From positions 9,753 to 73,752 of the forward strand of contig CAMATZ010000017.1 in assembly GCA_945861275.1 (NCBI GenBank): a stretch of DNA of 64,000 nt, read 5' to 3'. Position 1 is the stretch's first letter, and each line of letters begins with the position of its first letter. The notes under the pieces are model-generated. The model did not search any database. It saw only the letters and a list, made by a program, of their open reading frames with translations, and was not told where the DNA came from. Both the position numbers and the translations under genes were made by a program. Shown piece by piece: positions 3,662-27,521 of the stretch. Origin of the DNA: Bordetella parapertussis. Its GTDB lineage: Bacteria > Pseudomonadota > Gammaproteobacteria > Burkholderiales > SG8-41.

Positions 3662-3674
3662 GCAAAAAGCGCGC

Positions 3675-4853
3675 ATGCGTACTCAGGTCGGCATCGTCGG
3701 CGCCGGGCCAGCCGGGTTGTTGCTCTCGCATCTGCTGCACTTGCAGGGTGTCGAATCGGTCGTCATCGAAAGCCGCAGCCGCGACTACATCGAGCAGCGC
3801 GTGCGAGCGGGCGTGCTTGAGCAGGGCACGGTGGACCTGCTGACGCAGTCGGGCGTCGGCGAGAGGCTGCGGCGGGAGTGCATTGTCCGCGACAGCATCG
3901 AGCTGCGGTTCGGCGGCAGACGCCATCCCCTCAACCTGAGGGAACTCTCGGGTGGGCGCCCCTACACCATCTACGCCCAGCAGGAGATTGTGAAGGACCT
4001 GGTCGAGGCGCGCCTTGCGGCGGATGGCCAGATTCTGTTCGAGGCTGCTGGTGTCAGCGTGCATGACTTCGATACGGCCTCGCCCCGCATCCGCTTCCAA
4101 AGGAACGGTGAGGCGGTGGAGCTTGCTTGTGATTTTATCGCCGGCTGCGACGGTTTTCACGGCGTCTGCCGTCCGTCGATACCGGCGGGTGCGCTGAGCG
4201 TGTTCGAGCGCGTCTACCCCTTCGGCTGGCTCGGTATCCTGGTGCAAGCCGCGACCCCCGAACAGGAGACGGTCTACGCCTGGCACGAGCGCGGTTTCGG
4301 TTTTTTTAACCGGCGCTCGCCGGCACTCACGCGGCATTTCCTGCAGGTCGCTCCGGACGAAGACATTGCGAACTGGCCGGACGAACGCATCTGGCGGGAA
4401 TTGCGGGTTAGGCTCGCGACCGACGACGGATGGGAACTCGTCGAAGGCCCGGTGCTGTCGAAAAACATCACGGAGATGCGCAGCTTCGTTGTCGAGCCGA
4501 TGCGCTACGGCAGGCTCTACCTCGCCGGCGACGCCGCGCACATCGTGCCGCCTACCGGCGCCAAGGGACTCAATCTTGCAGTGGCTGATGTGCGGGTGCT
4601 GGCCCCGGCGCTGGCGGCATACTTCGCCTCGGGACGCAGCGAACTCCTCGACGCCTATTCCGCGACCTGCCTGAAACGTGTGTGGCGGGTGGAGCATTTC
4701 TCGTGGTGGATGACCTCCATGCTGCACCGCTTTCCGGAGGACGATGTGTTCCAGCAGCGGCTCCAGCGCTCGCAGCTTGAATACGTCATAACCTCGCGGG
4801 CCGCCGCCACGACCCTCGCGGAGAACTACGTCGGGCTGCCCTGGAGTGCATGA
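3675..4853 (+). CDS. pobA: 4-hydroxybenzoate 3-monooxygenase (PobA-like FAD monooxygenase)
   Basis: MRTQVGIVGAGPAGLLL Rossmann motif. ~392 aa. Colinear with known PobA throughout (IAGCDGFHG, FVVEPM.YGRL.LAGDAAHIVPPTGAKGLN, HFSWWMTS.LHRFP). Confidence 0.8.
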   Translation: MRTQVGIVGAGPAGLLLSHLLHLQGVESVVIESRSRDYIEQRVRAGVLEQGTVDLLTQSGVGERLRRECIVRDSIELRFGGRRHPLNLRELSGGRPYTIYAQQEIVKDLVEARLAADGQILFEAAGVSVHDFDTASPRIRFQRNGEAVELACDFIAGCDGFHGVCRPSIPAGALSVFERVYPFGWLGILVQAATPEQETVYAWHERGFGFFNRRSPALTRHFLQVAPDEDIANWPDERIWRELRVRLATDDGWELVEGPVLSKNITEMRSFVVEPMRYGRLYLAGDAAHIVPPTGAKGLNLAVADVRVLAPALAAYFASGRSELLDAYSATCLKRVWRVEHFSWWMTSMLHRFPEDDVFQQRLQRSQLEYVITSRAAATTLAENYVGLPWSA

Positions 4854-6044
4854 TTAGCGCACGATCAACGACGAGTCAGGTAAGCCGACATAATTCTCCG
4901 CCAGGCTGGTGGCCGCCGCGCGCGAGTTGACGACGTATTCCAGCTGCGAGCGCTGCAGGCGTTGCTGGAAACCATCATCGCCCGGGAAACGGTGCAGCAT
5001 GGAAGTCATCCACCATGAAAAATGCTGCGCCCGCCACACGCGCTTCAGGCAGGTCGCGGAATAGCTGTCGAGCAAGTCGCTGCGCCCAGAACTGAAGAAT
5101 TCCGCGAGCGCCTGGGCGAGCACTCGCACGTCTGCGACGGCAAGGTTGAGTCCTTTGGCGCCGGTCGCCGGAACAATGTGGGCTGCGTCACCGGCAAGAA
5201 AGAGCCTGCCATAACACATCGGTTCCACCACATAACTGCGCATGCCGGTGATGCCCTTCTCGATCACCGGTCCCTGGTTGAGCTTACCCTCGGCCCCGAA
5301 CCGCGTATGCAATTCCTGCCAGATCCGCTCGTCGGGCCAGTTCGCGATGTCTTCTGCGGGAGGCACTTGGATATACAGCCGGGCAATGTTGGGCGAACGC
5401 ATGCTGAACAGGGCGAAGCCGCGTTCGTGGTAGGCGTAAATCAATTCATCGGACGGCGGCGGCGCCTGCACCAGGATGCCGAGCCAGGCCAGCGGGTAGT
5501 GACGCTCGTAAACTTTGATCCGGTCCTCGGGAATCGACCCCCGGCATACCCCGTGATAACCATCGCAGCCGGCAATCACCTCGCACTGCAGTTCGAGCGC
5601 TTCGCCATCCTTGCGGCAATGGATTAGCGGCGTAGTCGAATCGAGGCCGTGTACGCTCACGTCCTCGACCTCGAAAAGAATTTGGCCACCCGCGGCAAGT
5701 CGCGCCTGAATGAGATCCTTGATGACTTCCTGTTGGCCGTATACCGTAATCGCGCGCCCGCCGGTGAGCCCGCTCAGGTTGATGCGGTGAGCGCGTCCCG
5801 CGAAGCGCAGCTCGATGCCATGGTGGATCAGTCCCTCCCGTTGCATCCGCTCACCGACACCCGATGCCGATAACAGATCCGCCGTGCCTTGCTCGAGCAC
5901 ACCCGCCCGCACCCGCTGTTCGACGTAGTCGCGGCTGCGGTTCTCCAGTACCACTGACTCGATTCCTTGCCGGTGCAGCAGGTGCGAGAGCAGCAGACCT
6001 GCCGGTCCGGCGCCGACGATTCCAACCTGAGTGCGCATGTGCAT
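4854..6044 (-). CDS. 4-hydroxybenzoate 3-monooxygenase paralog (PobA-like), convergent with the upstream copy
   Basis: About 70% amino-acid identity to the 3675-4853 product with the same motifs. Its stop codon abuts the stop of the plus-strand copy. Confidence 0.8.
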   Translation of the reverse strand: MHMRTQVGIVGAGPAGLLLSHLLHRQGIESVVLENRSRDYVEQRVRAGVLEQGTADLLSASGVGERMQREGLIHHGIELRFAGRAHRINLSGLTGGRAITVYGQQEVIKDLIQARLAAGGQILFEVEDVSVHGLDSTTPLIHCRKDGEALELQCEVIAGCDGYHGVCRGSIPEDRIKVYERHYPLAWLGILVQAPPPSDELIYAYHERGFALFSMRSPNIARLYIQVPPAEDIANWPDERIWQELHTRFGAEGKLNQGPVIEKGITGMRSYVVEPMCYGRLFLAGDAAHIVPATGAKGLNLAVADVRVLAQALAEFFSSGRSDLLDSYSATCLKRVWRAQHFSWWMTSMLHRFPGDDGFQQRLQRSQLEYVVNSRAAATSLAENYVGLPDSSLIVR

Positions 6045-7673: not shown

Positions 7674-8995
7674 GCGCCCTGACCGTCGGCATTGCACTAT
7701 TCGCAGGGATGCTGATACTGATGGCGTTGCGCGTGCCGATCGCGATCGCCATGTTCATCGCGGGCGCAATCGGTTATGCGGTGCAGGCAAGCCCGGATGC
7801 GCTGCTCAACCATCTTAAGGGCTTGGCCTATGCGCGCCTGTCGGTCCACGACTTGTCGGTGATCCCGCTGTTCCTGTTGATGGGCCAGTTCGCCACGCAG
7901 GGCGGCCTGTCGAAAGCGCTGTTCGGCTTGGCGAATGCACTGATCGGCCACCTTCGCGGCGGGATGGCGATGGCGGCGATACTCGCCTGTGCCGTTTTCG
8001 GCTCGATCTGCGGCTCCTCGGTTGCGACGGCGGCTACCGTGACGCAGGTCGCGTTGCCCGAAATGCGCCGGCACGGCTACTCCGGCCGGCTGGCCACCGC
8101 AACGCTAGCCGCCGGCGGCACACTCGGCATCCTGATCCCGCCGTCAGTGGTGCTGGTGGTTTACTGCATCCTCACCGAGCAGAACATTGCAAAGCTGTTC
8201 GCCGCCGCATTCATACCCGGCTTAATCGCAGCGGCGCTGTACCTCGCCGCAATCGCGATCTACGTAAAGTTATATCCGGATCACGGGCCCGCCACCGAGC
8301 GCCATAGCCGTGCCGAGCTGCTCGCCGCTTTGCGCGGCGTGTGGCCGGTCATGGCCATCTTTTTGTTGATGTTCGGCGGCATTTACGGCGGATGGTTCAC
8401 GCCGACCGAAGGCGCTGCGGTGGGCGCTGCGAGCACGCTGGTCGTCGCGCTCGCCATGCGCGAGCTCGATACCGCAGGCCTGATGCGCTGCTTCTACGGC
8501 ACTGCCGTGACCACCGGCATGATCTTCATGATTTTTCTCGGCGCCGACATGCTCAACTCGGCGCTCGCGCTGTCGCAGATGCCGGCGCAATTCGCCAAGG
8601 CCGTCGCTGCCAGCAACCTGCCTCCGCTCGCAGTAGTGCTCGGCATACTCGCGTTCTATATCCTGCTCGGTTGTGTGATGGACGAACTGGCGATGATACT
8701 GCTGACCATACCCATCCTTTTTCCCGCAGTGATGGGTCTGGACCTGTACGGGCTGGGCGCCACGCACAAGGCGATCTGGTTCGGCATCCTGGTGTTGTGC
8801 GTGGTCGAAGTCGGGCTGATCGCGCCGCCGGTTGGACTCAATGTCTACGTCGTGAACAGCTACGCGCGCGACGTGCCGATGGCTGAGACCTATCGCGGTG
8901 TGATTCCATTTCTTGCCGCTGACGCCGTGCGCATCACGCTGCTCATTACCTTCCCGGCGCTGAGCCTGTGGCTGGTCGGTGTGCTGGTACCTTGA
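7670..8995 (+). CDS. dctM: TRAP transporter large permease (DctM family)
   Basis: ATG at 7670 overlaps the dctQ stop. ~441 aa polytopic membrane protein with DctM-family motifs. Confidence 0.8.
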   Translation: MSALTVGIALFAGMLILMALRVPIAIAMFIAGAIGYAVQASPDALLNHLKGLAYARLSVHDLSVIPLFLLMGQFATQGGLSKALFGLANALIGHLRGGMAMAAILACAVFGSICGSSVATAATVTQVALPEMRRHGYSGRLATATLAAGGTLGILIPPSVVLVVYCILTEQNIAKLFAAAFIPGLIAAALYLAAIAIYVKLYPDHGPATERHSRAELLAALRGVWPVMAIFLLMFGGIYGGWFTPTEGAAVGAASTLVVALAMRELDTAGLMRCFYGTAVTTGMIFMIFLGADMLNSALALSQMPAQFAKAVAASNLPPLAVVLGILAFYILLGCVMDELAMILLTIPILFPAVMGLDLYGLGATHKAIWFGILVLCVVEVGLIAPPVGLNVYVVNSYARDVPMAETYRGVIPFLAADAVRITLLITFPALSLWLVGVLVP

Positions 8996-9007
8996 GTCAG
9001 ACGCTAA

Positions 9008-9150
9008 TGAGCCGCTGCGCAATGCTTCGCGGATCAAGATGTTGAGGAAAACAGCGGCGCTAGGCGAAAATTCACGCGATTGACTGCGCGCCTGTCGCGG
9101 GATAGATTGCCGGTTGACGAAAAATGATGTTAGAAAACCCTATACCCACA
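9008..9150 (+). repeat. ~140-bp intergenic repeat, copy A. Carries a 7-bp inverted repeat GCCGCTG..CAGCGGC and a sigma70-like promoter TTGACT-N16-GATAGATT
   Basis: More than 90% identical to 13876-14016. A partial third copy lies at 16716-16770. Confidence 0.6.
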
Positions 9151-9208
9151 AGCAGGAATATTACTCCGACCCCCAAGGGCCTTTGTCATTTTGTCAGGGA
9201 CTACTAGG

Positions 9209-10222
9209 ATGAAAACTTCGTCTCAGAATGCAGCCGGGTTGGATTTTGCCTCGCGGTTAATCAGTGCGCTCGTGAGCGCAGTACTCATCGCGCTGCTTAC
9301 GCACGGTAGCGCAGCGCTGAGTCAGGCGTATCCGTCCAAACCGGTACGCATCCTCTCAGGACAGCCACCGGGTGGTGCGACCGATCTGTTTGCGCGCATG
9401 GTCTCGCAAAAACTGAACGAAGTCTGGAAACAACCTGTGATCATCGAGCATCGTTCCGGCGCATCGGGCTCGATCGCCGTGGAGCTGACCGTCAAATCGC
9501 CGCCAGACGGTCACACTCTGGTGTTCGCCACCTCGGGACAGATCGTGATCAACCAGCATCTCCTGAAACTTAACTATGACCCGATCGCCGATCTTGCGCC
9601 GGTGGCGTTTCTCGTACACACCTGCATGCTGCTGGTGACTCACCCTTCGGTTCCCGCCAAATCCGCCAGGGAGCTGATCGCGCTGGCAAAAGCTCAGCCC
9701 GGCAAGCTCAACTTCGGTTCGGGCGGTAACGGCGCAATCACGCACCTTGCCGCCGAGCTGTTCATGTCGCTCACCGGCACACGCATGACGCACATTCCGT
9801 TCAAGGGCGCGGGCCCGAGCATGGTGGCACTGATGTCAGGAGACATCGATTTCACGTTTGGTTCGGTACCTGCCACACTGAGCCAGGCCAAGGCCGGACG
9901 AGTGCGCGCCTTGGGGGTATCGACAACGAAGCGAACGCAGGCCTGGCCTGATCTCCCGACGCTATCTGAAACCGGCGTGCCCGGTTACGATATGACCAGC
10001 TGGTACGCCTTCTTCGGTCCATCCACGCTGCCGAAGGACACGGTCGCCCGTATTCATGCCGATATCGGGCGCATTGCCGCGCAACCGGAGTTTCAGGAGC
10101 GCCTGTTGAATGAGGGTGCGGACCACGAGGCGATGACGCACGAACGCTTTGCCCAATTCATCCGTACCGAATCCGCACGCTGGGCGAAAGTCATACGCGA
10201 GCGCAATATCCGCGCGGAGTGA
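9209..10222 (+). CDS. Bug/TctC-family substrate-binding protein
   Basis: Signal peptide, then YPSKPVRI, GG.TD, FKGAGPS and PDLPTLSETG.PGY motifs. An alternative start exists at 9191. Confidence 0.75.
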   Translation: MKTSSQNAAGLDFASRLISALVSAVLIALLTHGSAALSQAYPSKPVRILSGQPPGGATDLFARMVSQKLNEVWKQPVIIEHRSGASGSIAVELTVKSPPDGHTLVFATSGQIVINQHLLKLNYDPIADLAPVAFLVHTCMLLVTHPSVPAKSARELIALAKAQPGKLNFGSGGNGAITHLAAELFMSLTGTRMTHIPFKGAGPSMVALMSGDIDFTFGSVPATLSQAKAGRVRALGVSTTKRTQAWPDLPTLSETGVPGYDMTSWYAFFGPSTLPKDTVARIHADIGRIAAQPEFQERLLNEGADHEAMTHERFAQFIRTESARWAKVIRERNIRAE

Positions 10223-10344
10223 CGACGCGCTGATGCTTGTCATCAAAACCAGGCGGAAATACCAGCCGCAGCATGTTACGCTCCAGCGCAGCAATGCCTA
10301 TTATCAAGTAATTGATATAACCAACACATTCCTGGAGGACTGAC

Positions 10345-11361
10345 GTGAAGACCGCTTGCGCAGCAATCTTTCTTGCTCTCGTATCATTCCCGGCCCTGGG
10401 TCAGAACGTGAAAATCACGCCGGTCGGCTCCCACCCCGGAGAGCTTTGTGCGAACGATCGTGCGATCATATTCGAGGATCCGACCGGCGTTCGCTTCCTC
10501 TACGACCCGGCGCACAACATGACCGGCGGCGACGACCCGAGGCTAGGCACCATCCATCTCGTGCTGCTGAGCCACATGCACGGCGATCACGTTGGCGATC
10601 TCAAGCTGAAGGCGCCGGGCGCCGGGACGTGCGCGAACTCGGAAAGAGTGCCCGCGCCGAATTCCACGACCGCCGAAGTCGCCGCAGCGAAGAACGCAGC
10701 GCTGGTGATGACCCGTGCCATGAGCGGTTTTGTGGGTAACAAGATTCAAGGCATGCGTGGCGGCAAGCCGATAGGCTTCTGCCCTCAAACCGGTGGCGCC
10801 ACCACCGTGCCGGTCGCAACCGTGTGCAGCTCGCAAACGGATCTGGGCGGCGTTTTTGTCGCGAAGGCGGCCAACGCATCGCAAGGGGTGGAAATCACAA
10901 TCGTCTACGCCTCGCATGTGAACAACGCCCCGCCTGCGCTGCTCTCCGAGGCGCAGCGCGAAATCCTGAAGGCGGACGGCGCCGTCCTCGAATACGGCCC
11001 TGCCACGGGTTTCGTCGTCAAGTTCACCAACGGGTTGACCGCCTACCTCACGGGCGACACCGGCATCCATTCCGAAATGAAAACAGTCGTGAACGAGTTC
11101 CACAAGGCCAACCTCGCCGTACTCAATCTCGGAAACAACCCGGGAATCTTCCTTTCCGGTGCACACGCGATGAACGAGCTGGTCCGGCCCGCATCGGTGA
11201 TCATCACGCATCCCAACGAGCCCGTGACGGAAGGTGGCAAGCTGAGGCCGACTTCGCGCACCGCTGCGCTCATCAAGCAGCTCAAGCCTGCTACTCATCT
11301 CGCCATCAGCGGGCGCACCATGGAGTTCGACGGCAAGGCCAACTGCGTGGCCGGGTGCTGA
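10345..11361 (+). CDS. secreted MBL-fold metallo-hydrolase
   Basis: GTG start with signal peptide. HxHxDH motif (LLSHMHGDHVGD). Confidence 0.6.
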   Translation: MKTACAAIFLALVSFPALGQNVKITPVGSHPGELCANDRAIIFEDPTGVRFLYDPAHNMTGGDDPRLGTIHLVLLSHMHGDHVGDLKLKAPGAGTCANSERVPAPNSTTAEVAAAKNAALVMTRAMSGFVGNKIQGMRGGKPIGFCPQTGGATTVPVATVCSSQTDLGGVFVAKAANASQGVEITIVYASHVNNAPPALLSEAQREILKADGAVLEYGPATGFVVKFTNGLTAYLTGDTGIHSEMKTVVNEFHKANLAVLNLGNNPGIFLSGAHAMNELVRPASVIITHPNEPVTEGGKLRPTSRTAALIKQLKPATHLAISGRTMEFDGKANCVAGC

Positions 11362-11362
11362 G

Positions 11363-12478
11363 ATGCGCATCGCCCGCATCGAGGCATTTCAGGTGCAGTG
11401 GCGGCCAGAGGACCCGCCGTCGGCGCGCAGCGCCTTCCTGCGCGTCTGGAGCGACGACGGGCGCTGCGGCCTGGGCGAGGTCTCGCCTATGCAGGGCGGT
11501 CTCGCGTCGCTGGTGATCATCAAGCATCACATCGGTCCAGCGATCATCGGCGCCGATCCGCTCGACCACGCGGTGATCCACGACCGGCTGCTGCATCGGC
11601 TGGTCAAGCTCGGGCCGGAGGGTGCGCTGACCAGTGCGCTTGCCGGGCTCGACATCGCGCTCTGGGACCTCAAGGGCCAGCTCCTGGGGCAACCGATCTG
11701 GCGGCTGCTCGGCGGCGCATGGCGCACGGCGCTGCCCTTCTACAGCTCGATCGGCGGTAACGGCGCGGCGCGCGGCCTCGATGAGGTGCTGCGCATCGTC
11801 GAGGCGCGCATGGCCGACAAGCCGGCGGCGATCAAGATCCGTTTCGACAACGACCGCGTCGATCTCGATAGCGAGATTGCGGACCATCTCATCAAGGCGC
11901 GCGCGGTGCGCAAGCTTGTCGGCGACAGCTTCCCGCTCGCGTTCGACGCCAATAACGGCTACTCGGTGGGCGGTGCCATGCGCGTAGGGCGCGTCCTCGA
12001 GGAGCTGGGCTATTGGTGGTTCGAGGAACCGGTGCAGCACTATCATGTGCGCGCGACGGGAGAGGTCGCGCGCAAGCTTTCGATTACCGTGTCAGCGGGT
12101 GAGCAGAGCTACACGTTGGCCGCGGTGGCCGATCTGATCCTCGCGGGCGTGCGCATGGTGCAGCCGGATATCGTCAAGATGGGTGGCATCACCGGGATGC
12201 AGCGATGCGCGGCACTCGCGCAGGCGCATGGCGCAGAGTTCGTACCACATCAGACGCAGCCGACGATCGGCCATTTGGCCAGCCTGCATCTCGCCGCGAC
12301 GCTACTGCACGCGACCAAGCCGTGCGAGCTCAACGATCCGTCGCCGCGTATGCATGCCGTGTTTACCAATCCACCCAAGCCGGTGAACGGCCTGTTCCAC
12401 TTGCCCACGGCGCCAGGCCTCGGCCTGGTTATCGATGAGGCGGCGTTGGCGAAGCGCAGGGTAGAGCTGCCCGAGTAA
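11363..12478 (+). CDS. enolase-superfamily enzyme (mandelate racemase/muconate-lactonizing enzyme family)
   Basis: GLDIALWDLKG, DANNGY, EEP and DIVKMGGIT motifs. Stop/start junction TGAGATG with the upstream gene. Confidence 0.75.
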   Translation: MRIARIEAFQVQWRPEDPPSARSAFLRVWSDDGRCGLGEVSPMQGGLASLVIIKHHIGPAIIGADPLDHAVIHDRLLHRLVKLGPEGALTSALAGLDIALWDLKGQLLGQPIWRLLGGAWRTALPFYSSIGGNGAARGLDEVLRIVEARMADKPAAIKIRFDNDRVDLDSEIADHLIKARAVRKLVGDSFPLAFDANNGYSVGGAMRVGRVLEELGYWWFEEPVQHYHVRATGEVARKLSITVSAGEQSYTLAAVADLILAGVRMVQPDIVKMGGITGMQRCAALAQAHGAEFVPHQTQPTIGHLASLHLAATLLHATKPCELNDPSPRMHAVFTNPPKPVNGLFHLPTAPGLGLVIDEAALAKRRVELPE

Positions 12479-12500
12479 CTTCATCACCTCGTGAAGCGAG

Positions 12501-13487
12501 CTACGGCGCCGGCTTCGCGAACGCTCCGATCTCGCTGAAGAACACCTTGTACTTATCCACGCGCTGATAGAGGAACTTCAAGTACTCTGGACTGGCGAGG
12601 TAGCGGTCCTCGTAGTAGTACTTCCTCGCATGATCCTTCCACTGCTGCGTCTCGTACGCGCGCTTGAGCACGTTTTCCATCATCGTCGCGGTCTCCTTCG
12701 GCACCCCGGCCGGGAAGACGAAGCCGCGGATGGTTCCCTCATCGATCTTGTACCCCGCTTCAGTTGCAGTGGGGATATCCGGAAACTGCGGCATGCGCTT
12801 CAGCGAGGTAATGGCAAGCGTGCGCAGCTTTTTCGTTTCGAGCAGGGCCAGGGCTTCGCTCAGGTTCTCGGTGGTGAAATGCGTATGTCCCCCCGCGACC
12901 GACAGCACCGCTTCCCCGCCGCCCTTGAACGTGACGAACTTGAACTTCGCGCCCGGCGCAAGCTTTTCCAACTCGTGAATGACTATGCGCCCCGAGCCCA
13001 GCGGGTTGGTGATGGCGCAGACGATGGTGTCGGGCGCCTTCCGCGCCGCTTCCGCGAGGTCCCTCAGCGTCTTGTAGGGCGTATCTGCGTTTACCATGAC
13101 GGCCTGGGGATCGACGGCGAACAGCGCGAGCGGCGTGTAGTTCTCGAGCCCGATGTTGACGTCGGGCCGCGCCGCCATGATGGCGACGGTGCCGGTGGCG
13201 GCGAGCATCACATAGGGATCGCCGCGCTTGGTCTGGAAGTAGTTGTATGCAATGAGGCTCCCGCCGCCCGGCCGATTCTGTACTACGAACAGTTGAGGCA
13301 GTAGTTTCTCGCGCCGGACGATTTCGGCGAGCGCGCGGGCATAGATATCGGTCCCGCTGCCGGCCGAAGTCGGCGAAACCAGTTCGATCGGACGCGTCGG
13401 GTACGGCTGGCCATTTGCCGTTCCGCATACGCTTGTGGCGAGCGCACCGCCCACCAAAAATGCGAGCACACCGGGGGAATTCGTCAT
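12501..13487 (-). CDS. Bug/TctC-family substrate-binding protein
   Basis: Signal peptide MTNSPGVLAFLVGGALA, then YPTRPIELV and the Bug C-terminal motifs. Confidence 0.75.
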   Translation of the reverse strand: MTNSPGVLAFLVGGALATSVCGTANGQPYPTRPIELVSPTSAGSGTDIYARALAEIVRREKLLPQLFVVQNRPGGGSLIAYNYFQTKRGDPYVMLAATGTVAIMAARPDVNIGLENYTPLALFAVDPQAVMVNADTPYKTLRDLAEAARKAPDTIVCAITNPLGSGRIVIHELEKLAPGAKFKFVTFKGGGEAVLSVAGGHTHFTTENLSEALALLETKKLRTLAITSLKRMPQFPDIPTATEAGYKIDEGTIRGFVFPAGVPKETATMMENVLKRAYETQQWKDHARKYYYEDRYLASPEYLKFLYQRVDKYKVFFSEIGAFAKPAP

Positions 13488-13599
13488 GCGGGTCTTCTCC
13501 ATTCAAGTTGTGTTCATTTTGCGATAACAAGTATTAGATTACCATTTCTGCCACCGTCCGGCAGTTCGGAATCCGACACTCGGACTCCGATCCCGATAG

Positions 13600-13850
13600 T
13601 GCCGGCCGCAGGCGGCACGTAATGTAAAGATTGCCGGAGCAGACCTCGCTGCGGTTTTCGAGGACCTGTTAGACCATAATGGCTGGCAGGTGGCGTGGCG
13701 CAACGGTATTTACCCTATTCATCATTTTCACTGCGTGAACCGCACGGGGCAAGTGGTGCTCAAGCTCAAAACACCGTATCGCAACGGCGCCACCCACATT
13801 GTGATGTCGCCGATGGAGTTCATGCAGCGGCGGCTCGGGTTGCGCTGGTG
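13600..13850 (+). pseudogene. IS91-family (rolling-circle, Y2) transposase C-terminal remnant, truncated at both ends
   Basis: The translated frame ...QVVLKLKTPYRNGATHIVMSPMEFMQRRLGLRW* resembles the conserved WKDYRDG...V.T.D..EFIRRF block of IS91/ISCR transposases as I remember them. No HUH or N-terminal domain is present. Stops lie on both sides. Confidence 0.35.
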
Positions 13851-13875
13851 AAAAGGTGTCGATGGCCCGGACATT

Positions 13876-14016
13876 AGCCGCTGCGCAATGATTCGCGGGT
13901 CAAGATTTTGAGGAAAACAGCGGCGCTCGGCGAAAATTCACGCGATTGACTGTGCCTCCGTCGCGGGATAGATTGCCGGTTGATGAAAAATGCTGTTTGA
14001 AAACCCTATACCCGAT
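13876..14016 (+). repeat. ~140-bp intergenic repeat, copy B, with the same embedded promoter-like element as copy A
   Basis: Aligns to 9008-9150 over the full length. Begins 26 bp after the transposase-remnant stop. Confidence 0.6.
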
Positions 14017-14031
14017 CACACGGATCAGATC

Positions 14032-14313
14032 ATGTACTCCAACAAGGGCCTGCCGCATGTGTATCTGCCGGATCACACGGTAAACAGGGTGTTCCTGCTA
14101 AGCGGCACACCCGGTGATTGGGCGTTGGGTGAATTCTGGAGGGCGATCGCGAACGAAACACGCGCGCGGCCCGATCATCTGGTGACCGGCAAGCCGTGCG
14201 TGCTGGCGACACCGCGCGAAGCGCGCGCCACGCTGGAGGCGACACTGGCGATCGAGTTGTCGGTGAAAAGCGTTCCGCCAGTGCGGCTGTCTCTGGCGGG
14301 TTATTGTGTTTAA
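14032..14313 (+). CDS. hypothetical small protein (93 aa). The reading frame starts at the 3' edge of repeat copy B
   Basis: ORF only. No recognizable domain and no clear RBS. Confidence 0.25.
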   Translation: MYSNKGLPHVYLPDHTVNRVFLLSGTPGDWALGEFWRAIANETRARPDHLVTGKPCVLATPREARATLEATLAIELSVKSVPPVRLSLAGYCV

Positions 14314-15274
14314 AATATCAATAAAAACAATAAGTTATGTAACTTCCGCGCTGACGCTTTGTTCGGTGGCGCAAGCCTATCCCACCAAACCCATCCGCAT
14401 GATCGTAGGCTACCCGCCCGGCGGCGGCACCGACATCGTGGCGCGTGTGATGGCGCAGAAACTCACGGAGAATTTCGGTCACACGGTGGTTGTCGATAAT
14501 CGCGGTGGCGCCACCGGCAACATCGGCACAGAAATCGCCGCGCGCGCGACGCCCGACGGCTACACGATCTTGATGGGCAATGTTGCGCCGAATGCGATCA
14601 ATGTCAGTTTGTTCAAGACGATACCGTTTGATCCGGTGAAGGATTTCGCGCCCATCAGTTTGGTGGCGCTAACGCCGAATATCCTGGTGGTGCATCCGTC
14701 GTTGCCGGCGAAAAGTGTCAAAGATCTGATCGTGCTGGCGAAGGCCAAACCCGGTACGTTCAATTATGCCTCGGCGGGCATCGGCAGTTCATCGCATCTG
14801 GCGGGCGCGCTGTTCGGCATCCTCACAGGCACGAACATCGTGCATGTGCCGTACAAAGGCGGCGGGCCGGCGATGGTCGATGTGCTGTCGGGGCAGATAC
14901 AACTTTATTTTGCCACCATGCCCGCGGCGATGCCGCATGTTAAATCCGGCAAGCTGCGTCCGGTGGCGGTCACCACTGAGAAACGTTCGCAGACGCTGCC
15001 GGAGTTTCCCACCATCGCCGAGTCCGGCGTCACCGGCTACGAAGCGGCAACCTGGTACGCGTTACTCGCACCGGTGCAAGTGCCACGCGCGATCATCACG
15101 CGTTTGCATGGCGAGGTGGTAAAAATACTGGCGGCGCCGGACCTGCGCGACAAACTCAAGAGTCAGGGCTTCGAGCCGGTGGGCAACACGCCGGATCAAT
15201 TCGCGGCCTACATCAAATCCGAAATCGCCAAGTGGGGCAAGGTGATACGCGACGCGGGGATCCGGGCGGAGTGA
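14306..15274 (+). CDS. Bug/TctC-family substrate-binding protein
   Basis: GTG start, signal peptide ...CSVAQA, then YPTKPIRMIVGYPPGGGTD, YKGGGPA and PEFPTIAESGVTGYE motifs. Confidence 0.7.
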   Translation: MFKISIKTISYVTSALTLCSVAQAYPTKPIRMIVGYPPGGGTDIVARVMAQKLTENFGHTVVVDNRGGATGNIGTEIAARATPDGYTILMGNVAPNAINVSLFKTIPFDPVKDFAPISLVALTPNILVVHPSLPAKSVKDLIVLAKAKPGTFNYASAGIGSSSHLAGALFGILTGTNIVHVPYKGGGPAMVDVLSGQIQLYFATMPAAMPHVKSGKLRPVAVTTEKRSQTLPEFPTIAESGVTGYEAATWYALLAPVQVPRAIITRLHGEVVKILAAPDLRDKLKSQGFEPVGNTPDQFAAYIKSEIAKWGKVIRDAGIRAE

Positions 15275-15557
15275 CGGCATGGAGGTTTGTTACTGCCCTT
15301 TAACGAAAGGTAGCGGAGCAGGGCAACTGTTTGCTGCTGCATCATGGTGCCAAGGGTACCGGCGTCGAATTATTTCTCCAGCACGCATGCTGAAAGCTTG
15401 AACTGCGAGGATGACCTTATGCCTCGCCACTCATGCCTGAACCTCAAAAACGATTTCACTCCGGTAATGAGGTTCGGATTGCGCACCCCAGTGGCGCGAC
15501 GCCTGTGAGAGTCTGCGACTACAAGCAGGTCAACCACGTCAGATTCATCACCGGCTG

Positions 15558-16538
15558 TCACGGCGCTTTCAACCCCGCCGCCCGCGCCACTTCATCAAAC
15601 GTTACCAGCATTTCGCGCAGTATCTTGTCGAACTCCTCCGGCGTGGTCGGTGCGGGGGTAAAGTCTATCGCTGCCATCTGCTTTTTAATGTCGGGCATGT
15701 CGAGCACGCGTGCGACATCCTTGCTGATCTTGTTCACGATATGGCGCGGCGTTTTCGCGGGCACCAACAACGCATGTGAGGCATCACGGCGGAAGCTGGG
15801 CAGAATCTCCAGCACAGTGGGAACATCCGGCAACAAGAGCGAGCGTTTCGGCGTCACCACCGCCAGTGCCAGCAGCCGACCGTCCCGGATCATACCTAGC
15901 GCGGGGCCCAAGCCGGGAATGCCGAATTGTATGCGCCCGGAGAGAATCTCGATCAGCATTTCCGATTGACCCTTGAACGCGACATGCGTGCCCGTTATTC
16001 CGGCGGACATGCGAAACCGCTCGGTGGTCATGTGAGTGCCGCTACCGGCGCCGGCTGAACCGTACAGAATCTTGCCGGGCCGCTCATGCGCGAGCGCAAT
16101 CAACTCTTTGACCGACTTGACACCCAGTGACGGCGCAACCACCAATGCGCTGGTTGAATAGCCGATCTGCGTCACGCTGGTGAAGTCGTGCAGCGGGTCG
16201 TATCCCGCATTGGATCGCAGCACGGCGTTGATGGCAAACGACGCCGATGTGAGCAGGATGGTGTACCCGTCAGGTGTGGCTTGAGCCGCTATCACCGTGG
16301 CTATCGAACCGCCGGCGCCGGTGCGATTTTCCAGTACCACAGGCTGTCCCCACAGTTCCGCGAGTTTGGGTGCCAGCAAACGCGCCGAGATATCCAGCGG
16401 GCCGCCGACGGAAAAGCCGTTGAGGATACGCACCGGTCGCGCGGGCCAGGCCTGAGCGGCGCCTGACGACGCGGTTTGCGCGCTTGCGATCGGCGCCAGA
16501 CCCGCAACCAGCAACAAATACAAAACCCGTGTCATCAT
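15558..16538 (-). CDS. Bug/TctC-family substrate-binding protein
   Basis: Signal peptide, then WPARPVRILNGFSVGGPLD, FKGQSE and PDVPT motifs. Confidence 0.75.
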   Translation of the reverse strand: MMTRVLYLLLVAGLAPIASAQTASSGAAQAWPARPVRILNGFSVGGPLDISARLLAPKLAELWGQPVVLENRTGAGGSIATVIAAQATPDGYTILLTSASFAINAVLRSNAGYDPLHDFTSVTQIGYSTSALVVAPSLGVKSVKELIALAHERPGKILYGSAGAGSGTHMTTERFRMSAGITGTHVAFKGQSEMLIEILSGRIQFGIPGLGPALGMIRDGRLLALAVVTPKRSLLLPDVPTVLEILPSFRRDASHALLVPAKTPRHIVNKISKDVARVLDMPDIKKQMAAIDFTPAPTTPEEFDKILREMLVTFDEVARAAGLKAP

Positions 16539-16715
16539 AGGTCCCCCGTGTCGTCTCCGGAAACTCCGGCGGCTCGCGGATTAGTTTAGGCTGATCGGCG
16601 TGCGTGTCAATTTTCAAAAAAAAGTAGCGCGCACCGGGTAAAGCAGCGAAGCGCCTTGTTTATTGCCTAACCTGCCTTACGCAACTCGTAACGGGTCGTT
16701 GACCGTTCGCCTGGT

Positions 16716-16770
16716 GAGGGATAAATTGCTGTTTGATGAAAGGGAGTATTTCAAAACCCTATCGCCAACG
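16716..16770 (+). repeat. partial third copy of the promoter/leader part of the ~140-bp repeat (TTGACC-N16-GATAAATTGCTGTTTGA...AAAACCCTAT)
   Basis: Matches the 3' ~50 bp of copies A and B. Lies immediately upstream of the pilin-like gene. Confidence 0.4.
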
Positions 16771-16813
16771 TGACGTGTTGTATAAACCTCATTGCTTACT
16801 CAAGGAGGAGACG

Positions 16814-17524
16814 GTGCGTAAGCAAACTGGTTTTACCTTGATTGAGATCGCGATCGTGCTCGTGATCATCGGTCTGCTGCTCGGCGGCGTGCTGATGGGC
16901 CAGGAACTGATCCAGGGGGCGCGGGTGCGTAACCTCGCTTCGACGCAAGACGGGATCAAGGCGGCATTTTTCGGCTTTCAGGATCGTTTCCGCGCTCTGC
17001 CTGGTGATTATTCGGGTGCGCTGGCCGTAACCAACATCCCCGGCATGGTTGCGAACGGCAGCTGTACTGGCGCCGTAAACGGCGGCGGCAACGGCGACGG
17101 CCAGATTGCATTAGCGGGTGAATCAATCATCGCGTGGGAACATCTGTCGCGGGCGGGCTTCCTCACCGGCGCATATGTTTGCGCGGGCGCCTCGCCCGAC
17201 ACAAGCAATACGCCGACCAATGTTTACAATGTCAGGATGAAGCTCATTCATGACGGTGTCTACGGCATAGCAAGCGGCGGAAGCGCACGTCACAACCTGA
17301 AGACCGGCGGCGCGATTCCGGTGGCGCTCGTCGCCGAACTCGACCGCAAGATCGACGACGGAATGCCTTATACCGGCAGCTTCCGGTTTTCGGCCTTCGG
17401 GGGCGGAGTTACTGCGCCCACTGAAAACAATGCCATCACTGGCTGCACCACCGGCACTACCACTGCTGGCACCTGGAATGGTGGCAACGGCGTCACCAAC
17501 TGCGGCGGCGCCAGCCTGCTTTGA
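16814..17524 (+). CDS. prepilin-type N-terminal cleavage/methylation domain protein (type IV pilin/pseudopilin-like), Gly-rich C-terminus
   Basis: AAGGAGG RBS, GTG start. Leader VRKQTG|FTLIEIAIVLVIIGLL is a classic class III signal. No adjacent pilus assembly genes. Confidence 0.6.
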   Translation: MRKQTGFTLIEIAIVLVIIGLLLGGVLMGQELIQGARVRNLASTQDGIKAAFFGFQDRFRALPGDYSGALAVTNIPGMVANGSCTGAVNGGGNGDGQIALAGESIIAWEHLSRAGFLTGAYVCAGASPDTSNTPTNVYNVRMKLIHDGVYGIASGGSARHNLKTGGAIPVALVAELDRKIDDGMPYTGSFRFSAFGGGVTAPTENNAITGCTTGTTTAGTWNGGNGVTNCGGASLL

Positions 17525-17802
17525 AATTACTATGCCTTTCCCGTCTAACGTGTCGCCGGGAAGTGATATTTTCACGGTGGGCATGTCCGTTGTGCCCGCC
17601 CTGCCGCAGCAGCAGTTACGCCGGTACTTGCGAAACCTGCTGCTGGCGCAATATTTCGGAGGCGAACGATTCCAGACATTGAGGCGTTTGCCGCTGAAAT
17701 AGCGGGCCCGCCCCGGTTCACTGTGAAGTTACTGACGCGCTTGGGTTATATGACTGAAGGCGGGTACGGCGCAGTGTTTACAAGGGCCGTAGCGTGCCCA
17801 CG

Positions 17803-19332
17803 TCAGGCGACGTGATGTCTCTGGCGCAGAATCTGCGCAGCTTGCGCCAGCACCGCCAGCTTGGCTTCGGCGGTTCGGTCCGAGTTTAGCGGATTGTCCG
17901 CAAAAGTAGCAAAACCGCAATCCGGTGTTATCAGCAGGCGCTCGGCTCCGAACAATCCGATCGCACGTTCAACGTGTGCCACGACTGAATCTACTGTTTC
18001 CACGTGCGCATGCTTTTGGTTGCAGGCGCCCACGCCGATGCGCATATCATCCGGTAACACTGCGAGGATTTCCATTTCCCCGGCGCGCGGCGTGCAAAGT
18101 TCCAGCAGCAACGTCCCCACCTGCAATTGCCCCAAGGTGTCTACCAGCGGGCGATAATCGCCCGATAGCGCCTTGCTTTCGTCCGCTGTCCAATTGCCCC
18201 GGCACATGTGCAGCGCGATGCGTTCACGCGGGAACCCTGCGGTGACCGCATTGATAAGGTCCCGCGCGAAAGCCAATTCCACCGGGCCTTCACTTTTAGC
18301 GGACAACGCGCCGCACATGAAACTGCGTTGATTAGCCGGTCCGCTAAACACGATTTCGGATAGCACCGGCTCGTCGAGCTGCACCAGTGCGGCGCCCGCA
18401 GCGAGCAGACAGGCGATCTCCTCGCGCAGCACCCGTATGATATCGCGCGCGAGATCCTCGCGGTTGGCGTAGGCGCGATCGGAAATACATTCCATCCACA
18501 TCGTGCGGGTCAGCAAGTAGGGTCCAGGTAATGCCACCTTGACCGGGAGATCAGTTAGCGTTCGCACAAATTCGACCTCATGGACGGCGATGCCGCGACT
18601 GCGCCCCAACGGCCCAAACACAGCCGGGTGGCGCACGTCTCCCGCTGGCACGTCGAGCGCACGCAATTCGCGTTCGAATTCCTCGGGATCGTCCACCAGA
18701 GGCAGTAAATCCGTTAACGGGATCAACTGGCAGTTGTCCAGGCGCGACGCGACAAAGCTTGAATAACTGTCGCGACGCTGCTCGCCGTCAGTCACCACGT
18801 CGGCGCCGGCGCGCAGTTGTGCGTTGATCGCCAGTCGCACTGCGTCATCGGCGGTAGACTGGAAAGCGGCTTCGTCGAGCCGCCCCTCCATGTGTTCATG
18901 CACCGCTTGCAACATCCAGCGCGGACGCGGCCAACTGCCAATACCCATTACCGAAAGCGGACGGACTGGGGGCGCTGGCGCGGGCCGCGGAAATTCGAGG
19001 AGTGGTTTGACAACGACAAGTTCGACACCGGGGTTGACGGTGCGCGCCGGTGTAGCGCCGGCTTTGCGTTCGGAATACTTGCCCTTGGCCACCAGGAAGC
19101 TACGCTGCCTGTCATGCTTGATAAACGAGAGCAGTTCGTTGCCTGTCATTCGACACCATGCGGGCAAATCTTCGTCAACGGAAATTTCCGTTGAGCGGAT
19201 TTCCAGCAAGCCTTCGCGCTCGAGCGGGTCGATGTGTTTACGGATGAGTAGCAGCAAGCCGTTGCCGCAATCCAGGTCGCCGCCGTCAAAGCTCACGTCG
19301 GGCAGATGGGGGTGTTGTGCAGGCTGTGTCAT
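17803..19332 (-). CDS. fusion protein: N-terminal TusA-like domain (CGNG instead of CPxP) plus cobalamin-independent methionine synthase (MetE) C-terminal-like catalytic domain
   Basis: GAGGAG RBS. N-terminal D.GDLDCGNG...DLPAWCRMTGNELL matches the TusA fold signature. Residues ~120-509 resemble the MetE C-terminal / UroD-like domain. Confidence 0.6.
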   Translation of the reverse strand: MTQPAQHPHLPDVSFDGGDLDCGNGLLLLIRKHIDPLEREGLLEIRSTEISVDEDLPAWCRMTGNELLSFIKHDRQRSFLVAKGKYSERKAGATPARTVNPGVELVVVKPLLEFPRPAPAPPVRPLSVMGIGSWPRPRWMLQAVHEHMEGRLDEAAFQSTADDAVRLAINAQLRAGADVVTDGEQRRDSYSSFVASRLDNCQLIPLTDLLPLVDDPEEFERELRALDVPAGDVRHPAVFGPLGRSRGIAVHEVEFVRTLTDLPVKVALPGPYLLTRTMWMECISDRAYANREDLARDIIRVLREEIACLLAAGAALVQLDEPVLSEIVFSGPANQRSFMCGALSAKSEGPVELAFARDLINAVTAGFPRERIALHMCRGNWTADESKALSGDYRPLVDTLGQLQVGTLLLELCTPRAGEMEILAVLPDDMRIGVGACNQKHAHVETVDSVVAHVERAIGLFGAERLLITPDCGFATFADNPLNSDRTAEAKLAVLAQAAQILRQRHHVA

Positions 19333-27122: not shown

Positions 27123-27199
27123 GCCCCGCTGGCGGAACAGGCATACGCGCCGGTCTTAGAAACCGGTTTTTCCGAGTTCGAATCTCGGGTGGGGCACCA
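27123..27199 (+). tRNA. tRNA-like, anticodon UAG (Leu) in a class-I (short variable arm) body
   Basis: Acceptor GCCCCGC/GTGGGGC, disc A, encoded CCA. Anticodon arm CCGGT-CTTAGAA-ACCGG. T-arm CCGAG-TTCGAAT-CTCGG. Confidence 0.5.
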
Positions 27200-27361
27200 A
27201 GTTTTTGCAGTAACCGCGCCGGCATAGCGACCGGGGAACGCGGATTGATCTTTAACAATATGGATGTGGTTAACAGTCTGTTGTCGCCCGGCGAGGCGGG
27301 CAGCCGTGTCTTCGGGCAGGGCGGCTTTGTTCCTCGCCGGGCAGGGCAGCAGATGTATTAA

Positions 27362-27437: not shown

Positions 27438-27440
27438 TAC

Positions 27441-27515: not shown

Positions 27516-27521
27516 GTTTAA

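Follow-up and report, generated by a model that had tools for sequence, protein, structure and literature searches.

The repeat of approximately 140 bp that recurs in this window (the whole stretch of DNA analysed, 64 kb in length) derives, with a probability that we put at about 0.8, from an ISCR-like transposon, a rolling-circle (HUH/Y2) element of the IS91 family: it represents the non-coding end that holds the replication origin (oriIS), and a promoter-like sequence within it faces outward. We regard the ISCR-type identity of this end, its boundaries, its family and the orientation bias of the genes beside it as demonstrated. A sequence-only reading of the same DNA had named the end of an IS91-type element among the possible origins of the repeat; this suggestion is strongly supported, since the terminus is of the ISCR oriIS type, remnants of a co-oriented transposase lie upstream, the right boundary is constant and the left one variable, and an empty site is available for comparison.

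Copies of the repeat in the window

A repeat search and local alignment gave the same limits for two copies, A (9007-9147) and B (13873-14013), which are 91% identical over 141 nt without a gap. The sequence-only reading had recognised both as full copies more than 90% identical, although its limits (9008-9150 and 13876-14016) were about 3 nt off. The DNA flanking A and B aligned no better than chance (scores of 18 and 17 against 17.6+/-2.1 and 17.1+/-2.3 for shuffles). With a profile search (nhmmer) we identified six copies in the 64-kb window, five on the + strand and a degenerate one on the - strand that lay outside the training set of the profile:

1699-1774, - strand: copy F, degenerate (profile E = 1.5e-7)
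2433-2520, + strand: copy D, of a sister sub-lineage (repeat family and motif; profile E = 3.2e-18)
9007-9147, + strand: copy A, a solo oriIS-end remnant of 141 nt, limits from repeat search and alignment (profile E = 1.4e-25)
13852-14013, + strand: copy B, of which 13873-14013 is shared with A (profile E = 3.9e-26)
16691-16768, + strand: copy C, of the A/B sub-lineage but more diverged (profile E = 8e-18)
33240-33325, + strand: copy E (repeat search and motif; profile E = 2.7e-16)

The motif that had been seen in common among the copies holds up in the window as a whole: the pattern TTGAC-N18-TARATTGCC has five sites, all on the + strand, where 0.65 are expected, and none of 100 shuffles reached five. 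Beyond copies A, B and C these sites fall at 2451 and 33257. The third copy noticed earlier, at 16716-16770, is likewise real, but it is longer, extending from 16691 to 16768 and including a -35 box at 16699. A, B and C form a genome-specific sub-lineage whose AAAACCC and TTGAYG variants are absent from foreign copies. The full 141 nt is common to A and B only, and both contain the GCCGCTG...CAGCGGC stem previously described.

Copy A begins 12 nt past the stop codon of DctM (8995) and terminates with ...AAAACCCTATACCC at 9147, and the start codon of a TctC/Bug gene follows 61 nt on, at 9209. Copy B is related over 144 nt (84% identity) to a metagenome locus, L015 (other loci are numbered in the same way); because the 21 nt to the left of its A-shared part (13852-13872) still match the element in L015 and L019, B is a longer remnant than A. 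Its terminus at 14013 is followed 18 nt on by the start codon of a 93-aa ORF (14032-14313) and then by a TctC/Bug gene (14306-15274). Copy C ends ...AAAACCCTATCGCC at 16766, and a pilin-like gene follows 47 nt on, with a GTG start at 16814; copy D ends ...GTTTGAAATCCTCATTCCC at 2518, with the start codon of a TctC/Bug gene 153 nt beyond (2672); and copy E ends ...GTTTAAAAAAATTCATGCAC at 33325, separated by 72 nt from an SMP-30/gluconolactonase-like gene (33398). Copy F and the 3' end of a cytochrome b561 ORF overlap, and past the terminus of this copy there is no co-oriented gene. The genes behind A, B and C (TctC/Bug; the 93-aa ORF and then TctC/Bug; an N-methyl pilin-like gene) are unrelated, as had been proposed, and the accompanying argument against simple paralogue duplication is sound. 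Similarity ends at the unit terminus, outside the downstream genes.

The terminus and the transposase remnants

The unit terminates in ...GGTGTTTGAAA(A/T)(C/T)CCTATACCC, which matches the ends of ISCR1, ISCR2 and an ISCR3-like element (...GTTT....TTCCTATAC). In these groups (ISCR1, ISCR2/ISVsa3 and ISCR3) the oriIS signature (G)AAAA.GG.GTTT....(T/C)CCTATAC(CC) likewise stands at the very end. The family consensus terminus is ...GAAAAATGGTGTTTGAAATTCCTATACCC, compared with ...CAAAAAGGTGGTTTATACTTCCTATACCC in ISCR1, ...GAAAAGGGCGTTTATTCTTCCTATAC in ISCR2/ISVsa3 and ...GAAAAGGGCGTTTGAACTTCCTATAC in the ISCR3-like element; at the boundary, the conserved oriIS terminal sequence reads ...GTTTGAAA(A/T)(C/T)CCTATACCC, against GTTTATACTTCCTATACCC, GTTTATTCTTCCTATAC and GTTTGAACTTCCTATAC, respectively. 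In ISCR1 the sequence ends 232 bp past the transposase stop, exactly the point given as the limit of the element in PMC6218425, and in ISCR2 the terminus lies about 238 bp past the stop. Comparable spacing, with oriIS some 100-250 bp beyond the stop, was found in the second copy at L018, where the terminus is about 225 nt past the end of transposase homology, and at L026, where a transposase C-terminal motif precedes the core of about 90 nt by about 25 nt.

The right boundary is common to at least eight independent contexts, whereas the left boundaries differ. Similarity between copies breaks exactly at the terminus, and it does so too against L034, a unit-free relative whose TctC gene shares 90% identity with that of the window: the alignment runs from 9148 on, with none before, so that it starts exactly one base past the terminus of copy A (9147) and serves as an empty-site comparison. 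The four bases past the terminus are different in every context (ACAA, GATC, AACG, ACGG, TCAG, GCGC, GGTG, GGGA and TCGC), and the IS91-type tetranucleotide CTTG/GTTC does not occur beside any of these termini; we therefore file the element with the ISCR group rather than with IS91 proper. Beside copies A and B, neither terminal inverted repeats nor a target duplication rose above chance; as the left edges result from truncation and are not true ends, this test is a weak one.

Remnants of a transposase gene lie upstream of units both in the window and elsewhere. In the window, the transposase matches are:

769-813: second weak transposase scrap (tblastn)
1608-1661, + strand: weak scrap of a transposase C-terminus (KVAVIEEPAVIEHIVTHA*; compare ...AVIEEPAVIKRILTHLG in L026; E = 1.3 and 0.31 for the two scraps)
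13735-13842, + strand: fragment of about 36 aa (TGQVVLKLKTPYRNGATHIVMSPMEFMQR) of an IS91/ISCR Y2 transposase, 48% identical to ISCR1 residues 345-377 (E = 1e-6; 1e-5 to 4e-6 across the matches to ISCR1 and ISCR2)

The last of these also matches ISCR2 residues 339-374 and is co-oriented with copy B, which lies 22 nt downstream; its homologues carry PF04986 (Y2_Tnp). To the left of the fragment lies a scrap of a cupin-like gene. Co-oriented PF04986 transposase sequence precedes the oriIS end not only at copy B but also at L015-L017, where a remnant of 127 aa (E = 2e-32) runs into the unit, at L018, where this arrangement occurs twice, and at L026, with the C-terminus (...AVIEEPAVIKRILTHLG) a short distance ahead of the unit. 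A tblastn search of the window with four ISCR/IS91 transposases found no intact gene, only the 36-aa fragment and the two weak scraps. Among the best 120 database relatives all transposase matches were fragments of at most 130 aa, with no intact parent element bearing this end. The 5' part of the element is missing from every copy, and no terIS end was identified.

In an intact element, the transposase gene would read toward the oriIS end, and the element would finish with ...GGTGAAAAATGGTGTTTGAAATTCCTATACCC about 100-230 nt past the stop codon. That end would be the start of rolling-circle transposition and the junction with target DNA, which would explain a right boundary that is sharp and common to all copies and a left boundary specific to each. 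With the transposase gene deleted or eroded, as we propose, all copies in the window would be non-autonomous relics.

The arrangement resembles that of known ISCR elements, in which the end also lies downstream of, and co-oriented with, the 3' end of a Y2/HUH transposase gene, often beside unrelated co-oriented genes, and which also have neither inverted repeats nor target duplication. The present family nevertheless differs from them: even over the most conserved part, identity between its transposase remnants and ISCR1, ISCR2 and ISCR3 is only about 45-60%, its oriIS region is unalignable with theirs outside the last 30 nt or so (there was no nhmmer match on L002, L027 and L028), and we found decayed copies only. 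Its hosts are uncultured environmental Burkholderiales-type MAGs rather than clinical Gammaproteobacteria, and its neighbours are Bug/TctC binding proteins and catabolic enzymes rather than resistance genes. With IS91, IS801 and IS1294 it would share functionally distinct ori and ter ends, of which the oriIS end alone is the part needed in cis, and its oriIS region has a pair of imperfect palindromes in subterminal position, as described for IS91 and IS801 (PMC13181058); it departs from them in its ISCR-type terminus and in the missing CTTG/GTTC.

The promoter-like block and the adjacent genes

The best-conserved block of the unit is TTGAC(T/C)-N17-TA(G/A)ATT, and in copies A, B and C it presents near-consensus, outward-facing sigma70-like -35 and -10 boxes inside the oriIS region. 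The hexamer pairs, each with a 17-nt spacer, are as follows:

2451-2456 and 2474-2479, + strand: copy D, TTGACC and TAGATT
9080-9085 and 9103-9108, + strand: copy A, TTGACT and TAGATT, outward sigma70-like promoter (consensus match 9/12)
13946-13974 (whole pair), + strand: copy B, TTGACT and TAGATT (9/12)
16699-16704 and 16722-16727, + strand: copy C, TTGACC and TAAATT (9/12)
33257-33262 and 33280-33285, + strand: copy E, TTGACC and TACATT

Across 14 copies the TGAC of the -35 box and the A of the -10 box are invariant and the spacer sequence varies. L019-L026 were retrieved by a pattern that required both hexamers and are for that reason not usable as evidence of hexamer conservation.

The outward promoters of ISCR1, together termed POUT, are PCR1-1 (TAAACG-N17-TAAGAT) and PCR1-2, and mutation of PCR1-1 lowered reporter activity by 85% (Lallement et al. 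2018, PMC6218425). Like POUT, the block lies inside the oriIS region, faces outward and has downstream genes mostly in its own orientation, and its -10 box aligns within 1 nt of that of PCR1-1 (TAAGAT). Unlike POUT, the unit has no evident second promoter of the PCR1-2 kind, and its -35 box (TTGACT, against TAAACG) is much nearer consensus, from which a stronger promoter is predicted. A portable outward promoter, as the sequence-only reading had suggested, is therefore a plausible candidate function of the unit, judged from its sequence and from the homology with ISCR1, and it fits the orientation of the next genes described below. In the mechanism that we consider most likely in the present genome, transcription would start about 7 nt past the -10 box, near 9116, 13982 and 16735 (for copy A we predict 9115-9117), and the transcript would cross the last 32 nt or so of the element into the adjacent gene. 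For the Bug/TctC genes, the 93-aa ORF and the pilin-like gene, the relics would thereby supply a promoter or replace the existing one, and those that drive adjacent genes may have been retained by selection. We infer promoter activity, such retention and past mobilisation of the neighbouring genes.

The gene past the terminus is co-oriented with the unit in 17 of 18 distinct contexts (binomial p = 7e-5), and in 11 of 12 when only copies found without the hexamer pattern are counted; the bias could come in part from local runs of genes on the same strand. Co-oriented start codons lie 4-153 nt past the terminus, with one at about 340 nt. The sole exception is copy F, in which decay has turned the hexamers into CTGACA and GAGACG. 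A TctC gene lies beside the unit in about half of the contexts, and the other genes behind units include those for an aldo-keto reductase, a glyoxalase, an F420H2 quinone reductase, a TPP-enzyme, an SGL protein and the pilin-like protein. Five different neighbourhoods contain a TctC gene with 84-91% protein identity, the breakpoints falling at the start and stop codons of the gene; a unit adjoins three of the five.

Alternative explanations and significance

The same ISCR-type identity would hold if the TTGAC...TAGATT block were a transposase-binding or origin sequence and no promoter, the relics being neutral debris and the genes relying on read-through or other promoters. Conservation alone does not separate promoter from origin function, and the block does sit in the subterminal region where IS91-family origins have palindromes (PMC13181058), with CGCGA-N15-TCGCG overlapping the -35 box in most copies (78.6% of cells paired). 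In that palindrome, however, compensatory changes are lacking, and shuffled columns pair just as well. Moreover, ISCR1, ISCR2 and ISCR3 lack TTGAC-N17-TAGATT at this position, so it is no general origin requirement, and the homologous site in ISCR1 is a proven promoter (PMC6218425). The hexamers and their spacing are kept while the spacer sequence varies, and among the 17 co-oriented contexts some start codons lie only 4-18 nt from the terminus, leaving no room for another promoter. We consider this explanation unlikely. Also carried over from the sequence-only reading is a MITE-like miniature, here a 141-bp unit that keeps both functional ends, a terIS-like hairpin to the left and oriIS to the right, and that an ISCR transposase from another part of the genome would still mobilise in trans. 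A laboratory mini-IS91 of 89 bp of terIS and 82 bp of oriIS does transpose in trans (PMC13181058), the GCCGCTG/CAGCGGC palindrome occupies the left third of the unit, and the genome-specific sub-lineage of A, B and C implies multiplication within the lineage. Copies would then be expected to start with ATGAGCCGCTG and end with CCTATACCC, but the left edge at 9007 belongs to copy A only, and other copies are cut at other points. The edge of A is a truncation inside sequence that continues in B and L015, the homology of B to L015/L019 extending some 20-40 nt further left, up to the transposase remnant. With inverted termini and target duplication both lacking, the left palindrome only partly kept in homologues and the 141 nt common to two copies, a MITE-like origin is quite improbable.

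That the unit is the native promoter/operator of Bug/TctC genes, copied along with the paralogues, would fit the frequency of TctC genes beside it. This reading is contradicted by the unrelated neighbours, into which similarity never extends, by close TctC homologues that have no unit (L033, L034 and L035) and by the transposase remnants upstream, and we hold it to be very improbable. A structured RNA, either an sRNA or a riboswitch-like 5' leader as proposed earlier, could account for the conserved stretch of about 32 nt from the predicted transcription start to the end of the unit; this "leader", however, is the last 32 nt or so of the transposon end, and the conserved 3' block is the ISCR terminus common to ISCR1, ISCR2 and ISCR3. 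An Rfam scan of 8000-18000 returned no family at E <= 1, the folding energy of the whole unit was no better than that of shuffles on either strand (z from -0.5 to +0.1; copies A and B, -0.36 and -0.48), no compensatory pair changes were found among the copies, and the GCCGCTG...CAGCGGC stem is only partly kept at other loci. An RNA function is so improbable as to be nearly negligible.

To our knowledge, ISCR elements have hardly been described outside clinical resistance plasmids, where the origin end marks gene-capture junctions and drives the adjacent resistance gene. Outward promoters at transposon ends are already known, and what is new here is an environmental branch of the family. As the oriIS end of an ISCR-like element, the repeat gives the window the same architecture in an environmental betaproteobacterial-type genome, with six relics in 64 kb, most of them placed to promote transport or catabolic genes. 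Units of this kind, of about 85-140 nt, should be annotated as ISCR oriIS remnants and likely promoters instead of unknown repeats; they mark past rearrangement junctions, and the family profile can be used to find more copies. The wider question is whether promoter function accounts for the retention of the relics and whether the shuffling of Bug-family genes is the work of ISCR-like elements. We advance only tentatively, as somewhat doubtful, the possibility that the ends of an undescribed ISCR lineage were recruited on a large scale as promoters in uncultured Burkholderiales, the transposase being lost and the origin end of about 85 nt kept directly in front of a co-oriented gene, and that the elements may also shuffle small catabolic modules and single Bug/TctC genes from one neighbourhood to another. 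Were this so, rolling-circle gene capture outside antibiotic resistance would be linked to the large expansions of the Bug family.

The repeat unit and its copies

A repeat search of the window, which comes from metagenome contig k141_707072 (ENA ERZ27280223), delimited two full copies of the unit, copies A and B, which the sequence-only reading had placed above 90% identity. They are 91% identical over 141 nt, ungapped, and a wider local alignment ends at the same bases. The third copy proposed in that reading, C, is real, but its extent had been set too short, as it also includes the -35 box. The window has five matches to the core motif TTGAC-N18-TARATTGCC, every one of them on the + strand (0.65 expected), and a profile search of the window found one further, degenerate copy.

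Copies of the unit in the window
9007-9147, + strand: copy A (repeat search, 141 nt)
13873-14013, + strand: copy B (repeat search, 141 nt)
16691-16768, + strand: copy C
2451, + strand: extra core-motif site upstream of a TctC/Bug gene (copy D)
33257, + strand: extra core-motif site upstream of an SMP-30/gluconolactonase-like gene (copy E)
1774-1699, - strand: copy F, degenerate (profile search)

The immediate left and right flanks of A and B align with scores of 17-18, against 17+/-2 for shuffles, and past the terminus, the right, outer end of the unit, the similarity of TACTCCGACCCCCAAGGGCC to TACTCCAACAAGGGCC is not above chance. Because the flank similarity is only at chance level, the unit is discrete and sharp-edged, and not a duplicated gene neighbourhood; the earlier view that simple paralog duplication does not explain the copies is borne out. 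Pfam assigns the downstream genes to unrelated families, again as had been proposed.

Genes around copies A, B and C
Ends 8995: DctPQM TRAP transporter, left of copy A
9209-10222: TctC/Bug gene (binding-protein family), right of copy A
Between this TctC/Bug gene and the MR/MLE gene: metallo-beta-lactamase-fold protein
Between the metallo-beta-lactamase-fold gene and a minus-strand TctC gene: MR/MLE enolase-superfamily protein
Minus strand, left of the 93-aa ORF: TctC gene
14032-14313: 93-aa ORF, right of copy B
14306-15274: TctC gene, right of the 93-aa ORF
Minus strand, between TctC 14306-15274 and the pilin-like gene: TctC gene
Start 16814: N-methyl pilin-like gene, right of copy C

Copies A, B and C have in common the derived variants AAAACCC and TTGAYG, absent from foreign copies, so this sub-lineage multiplied in the ancestry of the window's genome. 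Judged by their sequences, D and E belong to a sister sub-lineage and resemble the second copy at the metagenome locus L018 (CTTGTGCG.TTGAC...GGCGATA.A).

The unit as the oriIS end of an ISCR element

For comparison with known ISCR ends, we took these straight from plasmid records. The unit terminates in GTTTGAAAACCCTATACCC, and the consensus end of the window's repeat family is ...GGTGAAAAATGGTGTTTGAAATTCCTATACCC. ISCR1 ends in ...CAAAAAGGTGGTTTATACTTCCTATACCC, 232 bp past the transposase stop, which is the limit of the element according to Lallement et al. (PMC6218425); the corresponding ends are ...GGGTGAAAAGGGCGTTTATTCTTCCTATAC in ISCR2/ISVsa3 and ...CCCGAAAAGGGCGTTTGAACTTCCTATAC in an ISCR3-like element adjoining qepA.

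A transposase fragment of about 36 aa, TGQVVLKLKTPYRNGATHIVMSPMEFMQR, lies 22 nt to the left of copy B on the same strand. It aligns with residues 345-377 of ISCR1 and 339-374 of ISCR2 (E = 1e-5 to 4e-6), and its database relatives carry the Pfam domain PF04986, Y2_Tnp. The contigs of these relatives yielded metagenome loci in which longer transposase remnants lead into the unit. At L015-L017, one of them from NCBI assembly GCA_031381325.1, the unit comes after 127 aa of transposase and matches copy B at 84% of positions across 144 nt. At L018 the first copy is fused directly to a transposase remnant, and the second, on the other strand, has ...GGGTGTTTAAAATTCCTATTCG about 225 nt after the transposase C-terminus; at L026 the C-terminal motif AVIEEPAVIKRILTHLG stands about 25 nt ahead of the core. 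A metagenome scan with GATTGACTG-N12-GGGATAGATTG returned eight loci, seven of them with the unit, L022 being an apparent chance match.

When 12 copies are aligned, at least eight independent contexts have the same right boundary (...ACCC) and differ in the left one, as would be expected of eroded relics with a defined outer end. The right boundary can also be located against a locus that has the gene and not the unit: at L034, where the left neighbour is different, a TctC gene encodes a product 90% identical to the one in the window, and alignment with the window, at about 85-90% identity, begins at position 9148 (ACAAG...) and runs rightwards, with nothing alignable to its left. The point at which the two DNAs part thus lies no more than one or two bases from the ISCR terminus. 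On the left, the homology of copy B to L015 and L019 extends about 20-40 nt beyond A's left edge, so that A is a 5'-truncated solo end and not a complete miniature element.

Taken together, the ISCR-like terminus, the co-oriented transposase remnants, the boundaries and the empty site at L034 show, at the level of sequence comparison, that the unit is the oriIS (origin) end of an IS91/ISCR-family rolling-circle element whose transposase has been lost, which upholds the IS91-type end offered among the earlier alternatives. Its terminus and transposase remnants assign it to the ISCR branch of that family; the absence of the IS91-type target tetranucleotide beside the termini is one reason for preferring this group to IS91 proper.

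The other readings that had been offered fare less well. A MITE-like element does not fit a truncated end such as A, and neither the repeat search nor the A/B flank alignment found inverted termini or target duplications at the units. A conserved sRNA or riboswitch-like leader finds no backing in Rfam, which returned no family for 8000-18000 at E <= 1, or in folding, since neither strand of the unit, folded as single-strand DNA, does better than its dinucleotide shuffles. A palindrome, CGCGA-N15-TCGCG, does lie over the -35 box in most copies. Across 14 copies, compensatory changes are absent and its pairing does not exceed that of shuffled columns, so it gives no evidence of selection on a hairpin. 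We also rejected as a feature an internal ATG, GGTGAAAAATGG, which starts an ORF in frame with the downstream gene in B, L024 and L026: it is absent or shifted in C, D and L015, out of frame in L021 and L030, and absent from ISCR2 and ISCR3.

Promoter-like hexamers and the orientation of downstream genes

The hexamer pair is TTGACT-17 nt-TAGATT in A and B and TTGACC-17 nt-TAAATT in C, and in all three copies it agrees with the consensus at 9 of 12 positions. In an alignment of 14 copies, of which L021 and L024-L026 had been chosen by these hexamers, neither the -35 TGAC nor the second base of the -10 box (A) ever changes, whereas the spacer sequence varies; the pattern also holds in the copies found independently (the six window copies, L015, the L018 copies and L030). 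ATAGAT(T) of the window family aligns onto TAAGAT of ISCR1, the -10 box of the outward promoter PCR1-1 (PMC6218425). Mutation of PCR1-1 abolished 85% of oriIS-dependent reporter activity, and the promoter is required for blaCTX-M-9 resistance (PMC6218425). A J Bacteriol 2026 summary places two outward promoters in the oriIS end of ISCR1 (PMC13393415).

The first gene past the terminus is co-oriented with the unit in 17 of 18 distinct contexts (binomial p = 7e-5), and in 11 of 12 among copies ascertained without the hexamers. The sole exception is copy F, whose hexamers have decayed.

Distance from terminus to start codon
L030, aldo-keto reductase: 4 nt
L024, TPP enzyme: 9 nt
L026, TctC: 9 nt
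Copy B: 18 nt
L021/L025, glyoxalase-fold protein: 33 nt
Copy C: 47 nt
Copy A: 61 nt
Copy E: 72 nt
L015, L018: about 100 nt
Copy D: 153 nt

This bias is the pattern that retention of promoter-donating relics would give, promoter activity being predicted from the hexamers, and the same kind of bias has been reported for the genes downstream of ISCR1. Local runs of genes on the same strand may contribute to it. RNA polymerase would start about 7 nt past the -10 box, near 9116, 13982 and 16735. The transcript would begin with the last 32 nt or so of the element, as the first part of its 5' UTR, and continue into the adjacent gene. At copy A, the insertion appears to have left TctC in contact with no more than the 61 nt before its start codon, and the unit there therefore probably replaces the native promoter. 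More speculatively, and by analogy with the junction promoters of other insertion sequences, the outward promoter of an intact element might read over the ori-ter junction of a circular intermediate (terIS being the opposite end) into the transposase gene.

Related relics and the surrounding genes

An intact parent was sought with the transposase fragment, including by tblastn against PLSDB, and only fragments were found; no terIS end came to light either. Among named transposases the nearest, those of ISCR1 and other IS91-family entries, are about 50-60% identical. All of the best 120 database relatives are short ORFs, 53-130 aa in length. Some sit on contigs of 50-200 kb and so are not clipped at a contig end, and what remains of this ISCR lineage seems to be mainly decayed 3' pieces, many of them about 125-130 aa long. 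A blastn search of A, D and E against PLSDB plasmids gave nothing relevant, and hence no described plasmid with this end. Scanning a genome collection with TTGAYGAAA-N8-T-N2-AAAACCCTAT gave only six chance matches, in low-GC genomes; the pattern is too specific to the A/B/C sub-lineage.

Weak IS91/ISCR transposase scraps on the + strand at 769-813 (RIAMGPRAGRKVLSI) and 1608-1661 (KVAVIEEPAVIEHIVTHA, then a stop) stand on either side of a PccH-type cytochrome c gene (1005-1505) and adjoin the minus-strand copy F, which suggests that the left end of the window holds a nest of decayed ISCR insertions. Upstream of copy B, a gene scrap at 13620-13740 (...FEDLLDHNGWQVAWRNGIYPIHHFH), which looks like a YjlB-type cupin, continues in frame into the transposase fragment. 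In a foreign copy at L019 (1613-1700) the -10 region is tandemly duplicated within the unit, giving GGGGGATAGATTGCCGTTTGCGGTGGATAGATTACAGG.

Elsewhere in the window, 19 tRNA genes for about 17 amino acids are densely arrayed on the + strand at 27123-31153, one of them with an unassignable anticodon (31007-31080); a further site lies at 38161-38236 (-). Such arrays are unusual on proteobacterial chromosomes, and this one may mark a mobile or phage-derived island. Six tandem 108-nt units at 37265-37927 (83% matches) appear, by eye from their consensus, to encode Sel1-like 36-aa repeats, and a GTGAAGA heptamer array of about 10 repeats lies at 52862-52939 (96% matches). A 398-nt inverted repeat (4437-4834/4885-5282, 79% complementary) corresponds to two convergent paralogous FAD-binding monooxygenase genes, 3528-4853 (+) and 4854-6044 (-).

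The TctC gene next to copy A (window 9148-10222) recurs at 84-91% protein identity at L020 and L030-L035, in five different neighbourhoods. Nucleotide similarity stops at the stop codon (...CGCGCRCAGTGA) and from a few to about 60 nt before the start codon, limits that make the gene look like a single-gene cassette. In three of the five contexts (window, L020, L030) it adjoins a unit. Shuffling of single Bug genes by ISCR elements would fit these contexts, and ordinary rearrangement among paralogues would fit them equally well.

A syntenic relative known from gene calls alone (ENA ERZ1305449, contigs carrying P0126; TctC at 91% identity) has an inserted tannase gene between its TctC gene and the metallo-beta-lactamase-fold gene. 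Its DctM-TctC gap nearly equals the window's (218 vs 213 nt), which makes it probable that the relative has copy A too. It lacks the equivalent of about 13503-15900, comprising copy B, the 93-aa ORF, one TctC gene and part of the next. We judged this gap uninformative as a sign of insertion of block B; the neighbouring TctC is truncated in the relative (210 vs 325 aa), which points to a deletion there.

From its sequence, the unit is predicted to work like the oriIS/POUT region of ISCR1, with a -35 box much nearer consensus than that of ISCR1. Against ISCR1, ISCR2 and ISCR3, the transposase remnants here are about 45-60% identical, and the oriIS region is unalignable beyond the last 30 nt or so. 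Compared with ISCR elements, the hosts here are environmental, the homologous proteins coming from 'Burkholderiales bacterium' and 'Gammaproteobacteria bacterium' MAGs, and the neighbours are Bug/TctC and catabolic genes, not resistance genes.
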